This document shows, in pieces, positions 19,852 to 26,030 of a stretch of DNA of 64,000 nucleotides. The DNA is from a virus. The DNA is taken from positions 1 to 64,000 of the IMG/VR virus record IMGVR_UViG_3300006927_000001; one strand, written 5' to 3'. Below the pieces are notes generated by a model that was given only the letters and a program-made list of their open reading frames with translations, was not told the origin of the DNA and ran no database searches. Numbering within the stretch: position 1 is the stretch's first letter; each line of letters starts with the position of its first letter. Position numbers and translations under genes: made by a program.

Positions 19852-20468
19852 TTAGTAATTGCCTCAACTAATGCTTCAGTTGTTTCAGGTAAAGGCATGA
19901 TTTTCAGAACAGTATTATCATTTAACAAAACGAGAATTCGAGAATAGCCAACTCCAGATGCGGCGTCGAGGGCTGGCTTTAGGTCTAAAGGGACTGTACC
20001 TGTTCCTGTTTTTGGAGTTGAATCAGTTATTCTAAGTTCAATTGACCCGATTTCAGATCGTGCTGCAGGAACATGTGGTGAAACAGGACTATCAGCAATC
20101 ACAACAGCTTTGGTTACTTTAAATTCAGGTGGAGGAGGTCTTGCTCCGAGAACCGTTAAATTATAATATTTCTTTTCTTTTCTGCCTTCATCTCCCATTT
20201 TAAATATTAACAGCATCTGAACTTCGTATTCTCCTGGTGCTGCCCAGATAGCGAATGTATTTCCATTATCATATTCACGTCCACGTGCTCTCGGTCCCTG
20301 TGAAATGTTAATAATTTGCCAATCAATCATGAACAACGTGAATCCGTCAGGTTCTTCATATTGTACAGTAAATTCAATTGGTTCATGTTGTTCAAACGTG
20401 AAAATTTGTGGAGTTTCTGCTTTCACTGTATCTAAGAAAATAAGCGTCAAAAATAACAAAGTAGACAT
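19848..20468 (-). CDS. Secreted/membrane protein
   Basis: Signal peptide, WAAPGEYEV Ig-like motif, poly-Pro linker. Confidence 0.55.
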   Translation of the reverse strand: MSTLLFLTLIFLDTVKAETPQIFTFEQHEPIEFTVQYEEPDGFTLFMIDWQIINISQGPRARGREYDNGNTFAIWAAPGEYEVQMLLIFKMGDEGRKEKKYYNLTVLGARPPPPEFKVTKAVVIADSPVSPHVPAARSEIGSIELRITDSTPKTGTGTVPLDLKPALDAASGVGYSRILVLLNDNTVLKIMPLPETTEALVEAITK

Positions 20469-20531
20469 AATTTTTTCCTGTGCGGGTTGTTTGAGCGTGT
20501 CAATGATTCAAGATCGTTGAATTTTAAATCC

Positions 20532-20560
20532 TTGCAGCGATCTTGTCGAGATCGCTGCAA
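20532..20560. repeat. Palindrome copy 1
   Basis: TTGCAGCGATCT-TGTCG-AGATCGCTGCAA. Confidence 0.95.
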
Positions 20561-20606
20561 ACTGAGAATTATCCCGTATATTATACGTGATTCGACCCAA
20601 AATAAT

Positions 20607-20641
20607 TCCTTGCAGCGATCTCGACAAGATCGCTGCAAGGA
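20607..20641. repeat. Palindrome copy 2
   Basis: TCCTTGCAGCGATCT-CGACA-AGATCGCTGCAAGGA. Confidence 0.95.
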
Positions 20642-20777
20642 TGCTGATTTAGGTAATTTCAGACTTCAAATCAAACCCAGCAACCCAGAATGAAGTTTTA
20701 AAGTTGAGAAAGTCTACGAAAACAGCCCACTTCTCATTTGAGGAGTGGGACTTGTTGAAAGATTCAAGATCAAAGGT

Positions 20778-20935
20778 TCATGGGCGGTAGTTTGATAAGA
20801 ATGTAATTGAAATAAGGATCATGGGCGGTGGGTTGATTTAAATGTAATTGAAATAAGAATCATGGGCGGTGGTTTGATAAGAATGTAATTAAAATAATAA
20901 ATAAGAATCATGGGCGGTGGTTTGATTTAAATGTA
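20778..20935. repeat. ~41-bp tandem repeat x4 (iteron-like)
   Basis: TCATGGGCGGTRGKTTGAT....ATGTAATTRAAATAAG units start at 20778, 20819, 20860, 20908; inverted core CCGCCCATGA at 24491. Confidence 0.9.
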
Positions 20936-21086
20936 CAGCCTTAGAAAAAATTGACCGTATCAGACCCTACAGAGCGACAGGGGTACCCTAGTTTACCTAT
21001 TCGCCCTATTTTACCTATTTGACCCACCCCGCCTAGGTAGCCTGGCCCACCTATCTTGACCAGACTACCTAGCTTGCCTAGCTTAC

Positions 21087-21593
21087 TTACTTCTCCCAGA
21101 CAGCCAGCGTTGCCCAAACTATGTCCTTTACCACGGCGTACTCAACTTGCCCAAACTGACTAGCCACCTCAGACAGCGTAGCTTCTAGATTCTCCGGAGT
21201 TAACCTACTTGGCCCAACTACCGTAGCTTGCCTAGTCCACGCAGGTTCCCCATCTTCTGTAACCAACTCAGCTTGCTCAGCTTGCTCAGCTAATGCAGCC
21301 TTCGCAAATACCTCATTGTCTTCAAGCTGTGCATTCAACCTATATACCGCACATTCCCAAAGTTCCCTAGCTTGCTTAACCCTATAAAACATCCCATACC
21401 CCTCAGCAAACCTAGCCATCCTATTTTGCAATTCTTGCTTATAGAACTCAGCTTCCCTAGCCAGCCTAGTCGTCACATCTAACCTATTCATTGTAAACCT
21501 CCTATTGTACGTGATTACCGGATACTGTGGAGACTTCGCAGCCAATCTAGATACCGCATCCTGCACATCTTGCCAGCATACTTCAGTCATCAT
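21087..21593 (-). CDS. Hypothetical protein (alternative start 21491 with AGGAGG RBS)
   Basis: Open frame with RBS; unusual AGG/CTA-rich codon usage. Confidence 0.6.
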   Translation of the reverse strand: MMTEVCWQDVQDAVSRLAAKSPQYPVITYNRRFTMNRLDVTTRLAREAEFYKQELQNRMARFAEGYGMFYRVKQARELWECAVYRLNAQLEDNEVFAKAALAEQAEQAELVTEDGEPAWTRQATVVGPSRLTPENLEATLSEVASQFGQVEYAVVKDIVWATLAVWEK

Positions 21594-21615
21594 AAACTCC
21601 CTATCTTACCAAACG

Positions 21616-21653
21616 AAAAACCCCCCTGGCCAGGGGACACCTGACCAGGGGGG
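21616..21653 (-). terminator. Intrinsic terminator after divergent ParB-like gene
   Basis: Minus strand CCCCCCTGGTCAGG-loop-CCTGGCCAGGGGGG followed by TTTTT. Confidence 0.75.
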
Positions 21654-21668
21654 GGTACGTAGACACCC

Positions 21669-22925
21669 CTACTTGGAGGGGGCTTCTTCCGCGACTCCAT
21701 CAGTCGAGGGGGTAAAACTGAGAGGGGTTTTGTGCCCCAGTTCGTTGAAGAAGGCGAAATCGTTGGCGATAATTGCCGTAAGGCAATCACCCAAAGAGAC
21801 TTGCACATCCCCCAAAAGGAGGGTCCAGTTCTCCATGTTCTTCCGATCGATAACGGGCGGCTTGTAGCCCGAAATCAGGTTTTTGATGACAGCTTCCACC
21901 TGATCGGGGGATGCCGGTTTATCTTGCTTCTCCCCCAAAATGGGAACGTATCGTGCTGGAACTTTGCCGTCTTTTGTCCGACCAAGTAGAACTTGAGCAG
22001 TTTCCTTGTCCAGCTTACCGGCAGGAATCCCCCCGTTTGGGGAATACAACATTTTTCCGCCGTCATCAGTGGCCACCTTGATCTTGATGCGATCAAAAAT
22101 CTTGAGTCCCCCATTGGCGGGGATACTCGCGACCATCGCCCAACGGTGATACTTTTGGCGATTGCCACGATTGGCCTGCGTCATCTTGCCGGAAATCGGA
22201 TCGAAGCGATCAGATAGACCCAATTGTCTACCTAGGTCAAGTTCGGTGATTCCCGGTTGTTCAGCCAAAAAGATGATGGCGTTGCGAAGTAACCCGCAAG
22301 GCGAGTAACCCGCTTTGCTGTTTTGGGCGTTTTCGTCCGCCAACATCTTGTGAGTGACAGCAATTGACGTGAATTCACGCCTTGTGGCATAGAATTCATA
22401 CTCGCGAGGGGCGTCAATGTGCCCCCTCAATTGGGCTAGCACGACCGTTCCGGGTGCGGCATAATTCCGACGTTGCCCGCACAAGGCGAAGTCCGTGGGC
22501 TTGATCCCTTTGACCGATTCCAGCGAATCCGCCAATTGATCGTAAGTAATGGTTTCCGAATCCCCCGATTCCCCTTTTGGGAAATTCAAGGTTTTCTCAC
22601 CCAATTCGCGAAATTCCGCAATCCGTTCTTCACGTTGCAGCATTGCAACCGCGACCGGATCTTCAGCAATTGCCGCGAACAGATCACAGGGGTTCTCCTC
22701 GTTCAAAGCCGCAAACAGCTTCGAGATTTCGTTAACGGTGTACGTTATGATCGTTCCTTTGCTCATATCGTACCCATTGGCCATGTCAGGCGGGATTTGA
22801 CCCAACGGACTTGACCAGGAATCCGAATCGTCGCGTCCAGGATTGTATGCCGGGGATTTAGTCTCGACATTCCAAAACGCCCACAATTGACCGATTGATA
22901 CGGTCTGCACTTTCATTTTTGACAT
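21669..22925 (-). CDS. Highly divergent ParB-like protein
   Basis: Start MSKMK at 22925. LCGQRR (GxRR), ENAQ...YSP, GITELDLGRQLG HTH in ParB order. Confidence 0.5.
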   Translation of the reverse strand: MSKMKVQTVSIGQLWAFWNVETKSPAYNPGRDDSDSWSSPLGQIPPDMANGYDMSKGTIITYTVNEISKLFAALNEENPCDLFAAIAEDPVAVAMLQREERIAEFRELGEKTLNFPKGESGDSETITYDQLADSLESVKGIKPTDFALCGQRRNYAAPGTVVLAQLRGHIDAPREYEFYATRREFTSIAVTHKMLADENAQNSKAGYSPCGLLRNAIIFLAEQPGITELDLGRQLGLSDRFDPISGKMTQANRGNRQKYHRWAMVASIPANGGLKIFDRIKIKVATDDGGKMLYSPNGGIPAGKLDKETAQVLLGRTKDGKVPARYVPILGEKQDKPASPDQVEAVIKNLISGYKPPVIDRKNMENWTLLLGDVQVSLGDCLTAIIANDFAFFNELGHKTPLSFTPSTDGVAEEAPSK

Positions 22926-22957
22926 GATTCTACTTTCATTAGTGAGGTTTGAACTGT

Positions 22958-23294
22958 GCCAGCATAGGCAAGATAGGCCGATTTGAGTCATTCTGTGCAT
23001 ACACAACCAAATGCACCAAGTTTGCGATTTTTTGGTTGCGTACACTTCGGACAATATTTGATTCTATCTTCAGCGTGTATTCCATCATTCAAGTATCGTA
23101 GCAAGTCTATTCCGACTGTACCGAATTGTTTTTTTGCGTGTTCGTCAGTGGTCAAACTTTCCACGATTCCAAACAAAAACGCAGAATTAAATTCATTGAG
23201 ATTCTGTATCCTCTGTTTGAATGCTGCTAGTTGGGTTAGTGTTTCCTGTCTTGACATGATTCTTTCCTATCTAGCCTATCTTGCCTATGCTGGC
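22958..23294. repeat. 21-bp perfect inverted repeat pair enclosing ORF 22988..23257
   Basis: GCCAGCATAGGCAAGATAGGC (22958-22978) / GCCTATCTTGCCTATGCTGGC (23274-23294). Confidence 0.95.
22988..23257 (-). CDS. Small protein with C-terminal Zn-binding Cys motif
   Basis: AGGAAAG RBS; CPKC...CVC. Confidence 0.65.
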   Translation of the reverse strand: MSRQETLTQLAAFKQRIQNLNEFNSAFLFGIVESLTTDEHAKKQFGTVGIDLLRYLNDGIHAEDRIKYCPKCTQPKNRKLGAFGCVCTE

Positions 23295-23328
23295 GTACCC
23301 CCCCACATAGGGGGGTACACTGGTTGCA

Positions 23329-23488
23329 GGAACCAAGCAACCATGGCTAGATTTAGACGCCCACGTGAATACCGCCCTAGACTGGTTTAACGTCGCCCGA
23401 TAAGCCTCAAGAGTGACTAGTATACTCAATCGGTTTGAATTCAAAGGCCGTTTAACGAGTCTATGCTAGCCATGGCTGCTTGGTTCCC
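23329..23488. repeat. 22-bp inverted repeat pair (one G-U on minus strand) enclosing ~116 nt without a long ORF
   Basis: GGAACCAAGCAACCATGGCTAG (23329-23350) / CTAGCCATGGCTGCTTGGTTCC (23467-23488). Confidence 0.9.
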
Positions 23489-23490
23489 TA

Positions 23491-23670
23491 TTCTGAGTCC
23501 CTCAGTCGTCGTTTGCCAGTGTTGAAGTCTAGTTGGTTAGAAATCTACTGTGTAGCGTGAAAACGTGCTATACGGCCAGTGTGAGGACGTATAACAGCAA
23601 GATTGCCATTGCTGCGAGTAGTTTCATGTTTCACCTATCTTTCCGCAAACGACGACTGAGGGACTCAGAA
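23491..23670. repeat. 26-bp perfect inverted repeat pair enclosing a 19-aa sORF
   Basis: TTCTGAGTCCCTCAGTCGTCGTTTGC (23491-23516) / GCAAACGACGACTGAGGGACTCAGAA (23645-23670). Confidence 0.95.
23568..23627 (-). CDS. 19-aa hydrophobic peptide MKLLAAMAILLLYVLTLAV
   Basis: AGGTG RBS-like sequence 4 nt before ATG; TAG stop at 23568. Confidence 0.45.
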   Translation of the reverse strand: MKLLAAMAILLLYVLTLAV

Positions 23671-23858
23671 GATAGTACGCTATCAGCGGGTACAGTTTTT
23701 ATACAGTCTCGGTACGATTGACGACTGCCAGCACGTATGCCGGACTTTAAGTTGTGAGTCTGTTTTGCATTAGCCTTGCGATTCCTAGTTGGTGATTGTT
23801 GCGTCCCTCTACCTATACAGAAATGAGGAAAGGAATAGGGGGACTGCAAAAATCGTCG

Positions 23859-23883
23859 TAAGTCGTTGCTATCAAAGGACTTA
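23859..23883. promoter_or_regulatory. Spaced palindrome TAAGTC-N13-GACTTA upstream of the island transcript
   Basis: TAAGTCGTTGCTATCAAAGGACTTA; candidate site for a dimeric DNA-binding protein. Confidence 0.35.
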
Positions 23884-24123
23884 GGTGCCAGGCGTAAATA
23901 AGCATTTTAGTGTACAACTGTTCAGAACACAAAATTTTCATTTTGTTGCAAATATCGACGCAAAGTCTTTGACTGTAAGGCTTTAAAATTACTTTTTTTC
24001 CTGCAGGCTGTACCATACTTTCAAGGGAGCAGCAATTCCGCACATCCCTCCTGCTAGGTAGTTATAAGGACGATATTCGTGAATCAAACGTCCCCACCCG
24101 GTCGAGGGGTGCCAGGTTTCCCG

Positions 24124-24197
24124 CAATTACTTGTATTTGCTACAATTACTTGTATTTGCTACAATTACTTGTATTTGCTACAATTACTTGTATTTGC
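24124..24197. repeat. 19-bp AT-rich tandem repeat x~4
   Basis: CAATTACTTGTATTTGCTA at 24124, 24143, 24162 and 24181 (partial). Confidence 0.95.
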
Positions 24198-24210
24198 GAG
24201 AGATTCACTT

Positions 24211-24301
24211 TGATATGCCAGCGACCAGGTGGCATATCATTTTGAATCAAGCAGCTACCCACCCGAATAGGGGGGTAATTACCAGCGACCAGGTGGCAAT
24301 T
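24211..24301. repeat. Two hairpins with identical GCGACCAGG loop
   Basis: TGATATGCCA-GCGACCAGG-TGGCATATCA and AATTACCA-GCGACCAGG-TGGCAATT. Confidence 0.75.
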
Positions 24302-24667
24302 CAAAAAACTTTTTATACATTAACAGTAAACTTGATAATCCTCAAGCTGAACCAAGCTCAAACAGCCATGATTCTAGATCCACAGGTGTTTTGGCCATGA
24401 AACAGGGTCGGTGGGTTGGTAGAAATAAACATTCAGATTCAAACTCACTTGACCACTTTGTGATTTGATCTCGGCCGTCCTATAAAACCCCCGCCCATGA
24501 TCCTGAATTATTATGTATTTGACCAAGTGAAAATATACAGATCCTAATAACTAGGTAAATCACAAACCTTGCAGCACAGAAACATGATTTAGGATACTTA
24601 TCATCCCAGATCACACAGATCATGGTTGATAGGTTTGAATTAGTTCAACAGATCACCTAAAACACAA

Positions 24668-24702
24668 TCCTTGCAGCGATCTCGTCGAGATCGCTGCAAG
24701 GA
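24668..24702. repeat. Palindrome copy 3
   Basis: TCCTTGCAGCGATCT-CGTCG-AGATCGCTGCAAGGA. Confidence 0.95.
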
Positions 24703-24923
24703 ACTTTTCTACCTACAAAAGACACCTATATGCTTTAATATATGTCTGTTTTCACCTTTTTATTTTTTCTGATAAACAGTTTACCTCCCAAAAGTAAGTT
24801 AGAAAGTTAGTCTTTTATTTTCATATCTCACTTTTTTAAGAAGTTTGCAGCATGAAACCACGATCCATGAACCATATTCACGAATATAAGTTGAAAAAGT
24901 AACCGTTTCAGCCTTAAAAAATT

Positions 24924-24956
24924 CCTTGCAGCGATCTCGACAAGATCGCTGCAAGG
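24924..24956. repeat. Palindrome copy 4
   Basis: CCTTGCAGCGATCT-CGACA-AGATCGCTGCAAGG. Confidence 0.95.
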
Positions 24957-25081
24957 TTCCAGAATAACGTGATTTAGCATCCAAGACCAATGGATTCTAA
25001 CCAAATGGCCTATTATAAAATGGCCTATGAACAAAATCCATCTTATTCATAGACCAAGCAAAAACATAAATGGATCTTGAA

Positions 25082-25543
25082 TCACTCTTTATATGTTGTT
25101 TGCACACCAGCACCAGGCATAGAAGCACCTGCACCCTTTTCAACTGCACCTACCACCTTGTCTGTAGTAGCCTTGTCAGCAGCCTTGTCAGCAGCTGCTT
25201 TTGTCAGCTGCTGCTTTTTGTCAGCTGCTGCTTTGACTGCAAGTTTGGATTCCACCGTCTGGCCTGGAGCAGGAGTCGCATTTTCTGCAGCAGCCTTAGA
25301 AGGCGATCGACGTTTCAGCCATGATGCCAAATCCTCACCATCAGCCATGAACTCGGTTGCTTCAACATCTCCGGTGGTTTTTGTTAAAACTTCACCACCC
25401 TTACCAAGGAACGTGGACCTTTCCATTGAGTACGTGCCAAACGTACCATCAAGAAACCGAAACACCAAGCCAGCTAATGCATCTCCACTTAAATTACCAG
25501 CCAATGAACGAATTTTTTCCAAAACTTCTTCAGGTTGCGTCAT
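25082..25543 (-). CDS. Hypothetical protein with Ala/Lys-rich tail
   Basis: AAGGA RBS; KAAADK repeats. Confidence 0.65.
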   Translation of the reverse strand: MTQPEEVLEKIRSLAGNLSGDALAGLVFRFLDGTFGTYSMERSTFLGKGGEVLTKTTGDVEATEFMADGEDLASWLKRRSPSKAAAENATPAPGQTVESKLAVKAAADKKQQLTKAAADKAADKATTDKVVGAVEKGAGASMPGAGVQTTYKE

Positions 25544-25697
25544 GTGAAATTTCCTTTATGTTAACTAAAAACAAACATCCATTACATTCAGTCCATTCAT
25601 CCTCCAATCTTAATAATTACCACAAACAAAACATTTAGCTTTGAATCTTTTTGACCAAATCTAAATAACTCTAACTGAGCCATCATTGATCTCCACA

Positions 25698-26030
25698 TCA
25701 TGTATGCCATTTTGTCAGATCAGCAACTATCTTTTTTCGCCAAACATGTCCACATGACGGACATTGCCATTCACGAAAATCCTTCGTATCACGTGAACTA
25801 CAAAATCCCGAATCCTTACACTTGGGACACGTTCGTTTGCGATGTGCTAATTTGTCCATTTCAACGACCAATGACTTGTATTTATCTGCTCCCCAAACCA
25901 ACACCCTTGATTCAGGATCAGTGTCTGTTGCTAACAATTGTTCGCCAAATTTTCTTAGAGTCGAGTGTGTTCGTTCAAGAGGCTTCCCAAAAACAAAGAG
26001 CATACTCCTGCTCCTCATGCTTCCATTCAA
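25698..26030 (-). CDS. Zn-ribbon protein
   Basis: CPKC...CPSCGHVW; true start uncertain. Confidence 0.5.
   Translation of the reverse strand: MNGSMRSRSMLFVFGKPLERTHSTLRKFGEQLLATDTDPESRVLVWGADKYKSLVVEMDKLAHRKRTCPKCKDSGFCSSRDTKDFREWQCPSCGHVWRKKIVADLTKWHT

Follow-up and report, generated by a model that had tools for sequence, protein, structure and literature searches.

An uncultured marine phage, represented by the 81,873-bp virus record IMGVR_UViG_3300006927_000001, carries three long inverted repeats that lie back to back within 713 bp (22958–23670; positions are those of the window, the 64-kb stretch of DNA analyzed here, which is the start of that record). An initial annotation, made from the sequence letters, described these abutting repeats of 26, 22 and 21 bp, and a repeat search agrees with it. 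Each pair encloses one unit; the units are called cassettes C, B and A in their order on the minus strand, which is the coding strand here. Their contents are as had been claimed: in the list of open reading frames (ORFs), cassette C has an ORF of 19 amino acids (aa), cassette B has no convincing ORF and cassette A has an ORF of 89 aa, and the G/C hairpin reported between B and A is located at 23295–23318. The features of the cassettes are as follows.

23645–23670, minus strand: 5′ arm of cassette C, 26 nucleotides (nt), paired in the sense-strand fold.
23568–23627, minus strand: hydrophobic 19-aa ORF (MKLLAAMAILLLYVLTLAV) with an AGGTGA ribosome-binding site; its AUG lies 17 nt after the 5′ arm.
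23553–23565, minus strand: predicted anti-Shine-Dalgarno segment directly past the stop of the 19-aa ORF, from helices of the minimum free energy (MFE) fold.
23491–23516, minus strand: 3′ arm of cassette C, 51 nt after the 19-aa ORF.
23466–23487, minus strand: 5′ arm of cassette B, 22 nt, with one U-G pair on the minus strand.
23351–23465, minus strand: interior of cassette B, 115 nt, without a convincing ORF or unusual structure.
23329–23350, minus strand: 3′ arm of cassette B, from the repeat search.
23295–23318, minus strand: G/C-rich hairpin of 10 bp with a 4-nt loop and no U tract, −19 kcal/mol.
23274–23294, minus strand: 5′ arm of cassette A, 21 nt, followed by 16 nt with an AGGAAAG ribosome-binding site and then the AUG.
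22988–23257, minus strand: 89-aa ORF with a C-terminal CxxC...CxC motif, an orphan.
22958–22978, minus strand: 3′ arm of cassette A, 9 nt past the stop of the 89-aa ORF.

The arms of cassettes C (23491–23516/23645–23670, 26 nt) and A (22958–22978/23274–23294, 21 nt) are 100% complementary, with 128 and 295 nt between them, respectively, and those of cassette B (23329–23350/23466–23487, 22 nt) are 95% complementary with one mismatch and 115 nt between them. Over the three stems there is 1 mismatch in 69 pairs. The right arm of B is present as annotated except that it starts at 23466 and not at 23467 (a 1-nt offset). The spacer from C to B is 3 nt, and the interval from B to A consists of 10 nt and then the G/C hairpin, which abuts the 5′ arm of A. 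A similar G/C hairpin copy (86% like 23296–23317) is found at 24256–24277, between 22-nt direct repeats at 24218 and 24282.

The three repeats are far beyond chance expectation, and all of them fall within 713 bp of a genome of 81.9 kb. Across 30 block-shuffled genomes, exact arms with a partner no more than 800 nt away reached 12–15 nt at the longest, compared with the 21 and 26 nt observed. In a whole-genome scan of both strands that allows G-U pairs, the best scores of 10 shuffles were 28–38, and cassettes C, B and A score 52, 44 and 43 on the minus strand. Five stems stand above the shuffles genome-wide, namely the three cassettes and two pairs formed by copies of one 33–35-bp palindrome that is discussed below. 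The arms are mutually unrelated and no direct-repeat family connects them.

Terminal inverted repeats of 21–26 bp on units of 159–337 bp fit the size of the miniature transposable elements with inverted repeats known as MITEs, and the cassettes might accordingly be MITEs, fold-back transposable elements or their remnants, inserted side by side; MITEs have been reported in viral genomes (PMC11602168). Such elements occur in several copies, but in the 81,873-bp genome each arm here is confined to its own two sites, and there are 0 exact arm copies in viral contigs (A), in viral and genome contigs (B) and in genome and metagenome contigs (C). In addition, the cassettes have no target-site duplication (2, 0 and 0 nt) and unrelated ends, and two of the three carry an ORF with its own ribosome-binding site. 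An origin by transposition is thus highly improbable.

All six arms lie outside the enclosed ORFs, in untranslated flanks on the same strand as the neighboring genes. They end 16–17 nt ahead of the start codons and resume 9 or 51 nt past the stop codons, and the ribosome-binding sites fall within the enclosed parts; this placement favors a role of the repeats at the level of the message. The spacers between the 5′ arm and the start codon in A and C (16 and 17 nt) both contain the motif AGATAGG. A 13-nt start context on the coding strand, AGAATCATGTCAA, is common to the 89-aa gene and the downstream 418-aa gene (23251–23263 and 22919–22931), and words like GAATCATGG reappear in a set of 41-nt repeats farther downstream.

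All three stems and the G/C hairpin form in the MFE fold predicted for 761 nt of the sense strand (z = −12.7), an outcome that fits the RNA-stem reading of the initial annotation; the fold of the antisense strand is almost as good (z = −11.3). The predicted duplexes of C, B and A on the sense strand are 25–26, 22–23 and 21–22 bp long, or about two helical turns or more around each unit, as in long-range helices processed by RNase III. The initial annotation also took the single mismatch as favoring RNA (or single-stranded DNA) structure. Plus-strand A23340 and C23476 do become a U-G pair on the minus strand, but the argument is weak because the stem scores for C, B and A are near-equal on the two strands (52, 44 and 43 on minus; 52, 38 and 46 on plus) and because stem A gains G-U pairs, and so extends, on the plus strand. 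The strand evidence is therefore close to neutral.

Three further minus-strand features appear to delimit the transcription unit in which the cassettes lie.

24668–24702, minus strand: terminator-like palindrome upstream of the cassettes, likely the end of the preceding unit.
21669–22925, minus strand: 418-aa gene, starting 32 nt after the 3′ arm of A and probably in the same transcription unit as the cassettes.
21621–21653, minus strand: strong terminator-like hairpin after the 418-aa gene (14 pairs, 11 of them G-C, then the U run TTTTTCGTTT), likely the end of the cassette and 418-aa gene unit.

A putative shared transcript is supported by the gene order on one strand, by the terminator-like hairpin upstream and by the strong one downstream. 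The minus-strand genes run from 64257 to 1 and continue round the record ends to 70861, and a block of plus-strand genes occupies 64529–70880. The cassettes lie ∼40 kb into the minus-strand block, whose start is the strand switch near 64.3 kb, and they are positioned between genes for DNA metabolism or modification and structural genes: genes for methyltransferase and DNA metabolism lie upstream, and genes of unknown function leading to the terminase lie downstream. With the block starting so far upstream and the cassettes in this position, the “early” transcript that was originally proposed is doubtful. In the strand-switch region (64258–64528, beyond the window), a candidate for a divergent early promoter region, there is a perfect inverted repeat of 16 bp (64324/64371). 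The accompanying suggestion that the RNAs might be circularized is unsupported, and no RtcB or RNA ligase family match was found in the phage.

The explanation that we tentatively prefer, giving it a probability a little short of even, is that the three repeat pairs are gene-enclosing long-range RNA helices in one transcript, for processing or insulation and for modular exchange. A sense (minus-strand) transcript would extend from the non-coding region at ∼23.7–24.6 kb across the three cassettes and on into the 418-aa gene, stopping at the terminator at 21621–21653. Each helix would close one unit, ribosome-binding site included, as its own loop, and at 21–26 near-perfect bp the helices would have the length needed for cleavage of both strands by host RNase III. 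Such cutting would yield single-unit RNAs with both ends still paired, as well as a new 5′ end for the 418-aa message. Closure could insulate the folding, decay or translation of each unit from its neighbors, and it would make each unit a self-contained module exchangeable between phages. In cassette C, the helix together with internal anti-Shine-Dalgarno pairing would hold back translation of a toxin-like 19-aa membrane peptide until RNA processing has taken place. The wider proposition, that stem-closed gene modules are a general and undescribed way in which tailed phages organize parts of their transcripts, is doubtful.

Several observations weigh against these RNA helices. The array comprises only three units. 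The stems score almost equally on both strands and hence do not distinguish RNA from single- or double-stranded DNA, and arms that are so nearly perfect could also reflect DNA-level homogenization or a recent origin. In a diverged relative described below the arms seem to be conserved in sequence, which RNA pairing alone does not require. A promoter scan with the σ70 consensus gave none that is convincing within 850 nt upstream; the only two σ70-like sites upstream on the minus strand, at 24559 and 24911, are weak. Finally, no phage-encoded RNase III was found in the genome, so cutting would depend on the host enzyme. Readings of the upstream region as σ54-like and extended −10 promoters were dismissed by eye.

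The contents of cassette C raise a different possibility for the same helices. Its 19-aa peptide is extremely hydrophobic, with a grand average of hydropathy (GRAVY) of 2.35; only 2 of the 775 ATG-initiated short ORFs (15–30 aa) in the genome, itself included, are as hydrophobic. In the predicted MFE fold of C the segment 23553–23565, which follows the stop codon, is base-paired (3+6+3 bp) with both the ribosome-binding site and the AUG of this ORF inside the 26-bp closure. The helices could thus form in RNA and remain uncut, acting as clamps against exonucleases or as translational locks in the manner of fold-back type I toxin mRNAs, with C a toxin-like module and A and B analogous locks or stable RNAs. 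There are published parallels, in which hok mRNA is closed by a long-distance 5′-3′ interaction that blocks translation until 3′ processing (PMC9841398) and the icaR mRNA 3′ untranslated region (UTR) pairs with the ribosome-binding site (PMC3868564). This reading is unlikely, however, since the ribosome-binding site of A lies outside the stem, perfect duplexes of 21–26 bp would not easily escape cutting in the presence of RNase III, the plus strand of 23400–23700 has no antisense promoter-like site (by the σ70 consensus only), and the fold of the C interior alone is not significant (z = −1.55, matched by 11 of 200 shuffles).

The interior of cassette B is no more structured than shuffled sequence (minus strand, z = −0.31; plus strand, z = −1.52). 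The minus-strand value argues against a dedicated structured RNA there, and B as a structured small RNA was rejected. An Rfam scan gave nothing at any family's gathering score (three chance-level eukaryotic matches, E 0.03–3.6, all lie outside the cassettes), and no tRNA or tmRNA was found by scans for them.

Most of the stretch is present in DNA runs labeled marine metagenome, and the runs listed for the phage are 20 DNA runs from 16 studies, with no RNA run among the 20. Contigs of four runs (X7, X9, X11 and X15) were aligned to the stretch. Those of X7, X9 and X11, which have 0–1 other letters, run across five of the six arms and do so exclusively in the reference orientation. Only the last 8 nt of X9 record 27 extend into the sixth, the left arm of C; this record (23214–23598) takes in A's right arm, the hairpin and the whole of B and stops just within that sixth arm. 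No strand-changing joints within 22958–23670 are listed in the contigs, which can miss rare forms. These data bear on whether the cassettes are DNA segments that a site-specific recombinase inverts (invertons). Inverted repeats of such size do flank invertible segments in known systems, but the contigs that cross the arms are all in one orientation (again, contigs can miss rare forms), the phage genome has no Resolvase or Phage_integrase match (a host enzyme is possible), three unrelated repeat pairs would need several specificities, and flipping A or C would merely switch a gene off within a one-strand operon. Inversion is the least probable of the readings considered.

Run X15, one of the hydrothermal-vent runs X15, X16 and X17, contains a ∼10%-diverged relative of the phage. 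Its record 12 matches 22390–22987 with 62 other letters, thereby covering the 3′ arm of A; beyond this match, starting precisely at the 89-aa ORF's stop codon, come 90 unlike letters. A second X15 contig has 198 unlike letters up to 23254 and begins to match at 23255, the start codon; this match is ∼41 nt long (about 23255–23295, calculated from the depth table, with 0.38 and 15 per 141-nt bin), takes in both the ribosome-binding site and the 5′ arm of A and stops close to the arm's outer edge. When the loose letters are translated by hand, on the assumption that the letters as printed adjoin the junctions, they give a different ORF that uses the same ATG (Met-Asp-Leu-Cys-Lys-Thr-Cys) and has its stop one base before the other junction. 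Because the X15 contigs match the flanks and diverge exactly between the start and stop codons, the frame of cassette A has been kept around unrelated cargo. The swapped cargo that the initial annotation predicted for relatives is thus seen for cassette A in this one relative, where the 89-aa gene is replaced from start to stop. X15 gives no cover over 23397–23819, which includes part of the interior and the right arm of B and all of C.

This replacement would also fit a reading of the repeats as DNA-level frames for cassette exchange, through homology between co-infecting phages or snap-back single-stranded DNA, with no RNA role. X15 appears to keep the frame of A around a replaced gene, its upstream homology seems, by the depth arithmetic, to end at the outer edge of the arm, the arms are near-perfect, and the cassettes sit within a repeat-rich 4.4-kb island with palindromes and iterons. 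Exchange by homology, however, requires neither an inverted arrangement nor a separate repeat for every cassette, arms of this length are short for RecA-type recombination, the genome gave no family match to a serine or tyrosine recombinase, and placement of the arms around ribosome-binding sites and stops is what a message-level role would lead one to expect. We regard this reading as unlikely. Two named systems were also rejected. attC sites are local imperfect hairpins with conserved core sites, and an integron cassette is not indicated since there is no tyrosine recombinase and the arms are perfect and enclose the cargo instead of following it. A retron was rejected since the genome has no RVT_1 reverse transcriptase match.

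The proteins of the cassette region offer few clues to its function. The 89-aa protein matched only itself among 5.8 billion clusters, and neither it nor the 418-aa protein or their neighbors has a match in Pfam, PHROG or NCBIfam. A 15-bp helix is predicted within the 89-aa ORF (22997–23045), over the codons of its zinc-type motif. The 418-aa protein belongs to a small family (30 representatives among 1.84 billion); it has no sequence match in the PDB, no match in 50,697 cultured phage records by tblastn and no relative in viral or metagenome contigs. Atlas gave no usable functional lead for the proteins of the cassette region.

The 4.4-kb repeat-rich island holds the cassettes, the 418-aa gene and a 168-aa gene. 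It is bracketed by four copies of a perfect palindrome of 33–35 bp (20528–20560, 20607–20641, 24668–24702 and 24924–24956) that is terminator-like on both strands and has no exact copy in viral contigs; the two copies on each side of the island could pair with each other over 47 or 206 nt. These palindromes could act as terminators or as binding sites of the ParB type. At 20773–20945 there are four 41-nt repeats in tandem that share the core CATGGGCGGTGG, and an inverted copy of the core is found across the island at 24482–24514. At 24117–24211 there is an iteron-like 19-nt tandem repeat in ∼4–5 copies; X15 has 22 other letters in place of 24109–24204. A 34-nt piece (23853–23886) is common to many otherwise unlike contigs in all four runs, with loose ends on both sides and a depth of up to 78, and it could represent a short motif of wide occurrence or, at 80% likeness, a match by chance. 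The G+C content is 0.45–0.54 over 20950–22900, which includes the 168-aa and 418-aa genes (∼0.51–0.54 over the latter), compared with 0.40 for the genome, and the 168-aa gene has a strong C-over-G skew; this section may have been acquired.

With such surroundings, the inverted repeats might be structures or protein-binding sites of a replication origin, a partition site or a packaging region. The 19-nt (×4) and 41-nt (×4) tandem repeats and the four palindromes are close by, the phage encodes ParB-like proteins, and the stem energies are alike on both strands. Against this, loops of 115–295 nt do not favor cruciforms, a single binding protein is hard to reconcile with three unrelated sequences, the arms frame ORFs precisely, and X15 keeps the frame of A, yet its iterons (24109–24204) are replaced and 23397–23819 is uncovered. 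This alternative is very unlikely. All of the DNA-level readings together are improbable, though they carry appreciable weight as a group.

The genome that contains the island is that of a tailed phage. Its record has a 123-bp repeat at its ends and a G+C content of 40%, and the gene set includes a gpA-type large terminase, a P22-type coat protein, a family A DNA polymerase, a class II ribonucleotide reductase, ParB-like proteins and a ligase-like protein. Among cultured phages, the terminases closest to its own are SPO1-like (23% identity). A 716-aa protein and the large terminase have no close relative in viral contigs, a blastn search of 20000–26000 against phage records gave no match, and the only closer protein relative was P0002 (66% identity), on a 2,135-bp ENA contig.

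If the preferred explanation by RNA helices is right, a private helix for each small gene or RNA would be at once a processing or insulation signal and the border of a plug-and-play unit, whose cargo is swapped while the frame is kept. The cassette without a gene and the cassette with a toxin-like 19-aa peptide are the distinctive features of the locus, and they would be new kinds of cargo, the latter a doubly locked toxin-like membrane peptide. Phage messages would then be organized like ribosomal RNA, with units looped out and excised if the stems act in RNA, and the same helices would mark the units that are exchanged by recombination between phages. This would provide a mechanism both for the independent expression of small genes within long one-strand operons and for the fact that gene replacement so often respects gene borders in phage genomes. 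Paired flanks of 21–26 nt would be portable parts with which to insulate genes in synthetic operons, and cassette C suggests how a phage might keep a membrane-active peptide harmless up to a chosen time. The instance is small, and it rests on sequence geometry and one partly seen relative. The layout appears unpublished; the literature, searched by titles and the starts of abstracts (most subscription journals lie outside this scope, and it is no proof of absence), gave no account of phage genes enclosed one by one in abutting private stems.

The closest architecture among known systems is that of ribosomal RNA (rRNA), in which RNase III cuts the leader-trailer stalks around 16S and 23S rRNA. 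There, complementary flanks loop out a unit and successive units have their own stalk; the phage differs in that its cargo consists of small coding or non-coding units and its stems are near-perfect and short. The RNase III sites of phage T7 are local hairpins between genes, whereas the arms here lie 115–295 nt apart and enclose whole units. Host RNase III has been reported to process T7 polycistronic transcripts (PMC6938266). In Bacillus subtilis, RNase III cuts long-range intramolecular mRNA duplexes of 10–36 bp with no more than 505 nt between the cuts, according to a published map (PMC11780869), and the phage stems (21–26 bp, 115–295 nt) fall inside this range. The mapped duplexes are scattered single sites in cellular mRNAs, in contrast to the abutting and predicted private stems of the phage with one small unit each. 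The icaR mRNA of Staphylococcus aureus pairs its own 5′ and 3′ UTRs to form an RNase III substrate that controls translation (PMC3868564), and hok mRNA is folded back by a tac/fbi closure that blocks translation (PMC9841398). In icaR, a short motif pairs with the ribosome-binding site itself, whereas the ribosome-binding sites of the phage are in loops and not in stems. Toxins of the Ibs type are 18–19 aa long, and cassette C resembles the hok and Ibs systems in its tiny hydrophobic peptide and, if its predicted fold forms, would resemble them in 5′-3′ closure and in sequestration of the ribosome-binding site. It differs from them in that no antisense RNA gene was found (the σ70 scan of 23400–23700 is a weak negative) and in that this phage has the same architecture around a gene that is not a toxin and around a unit that has no gene.

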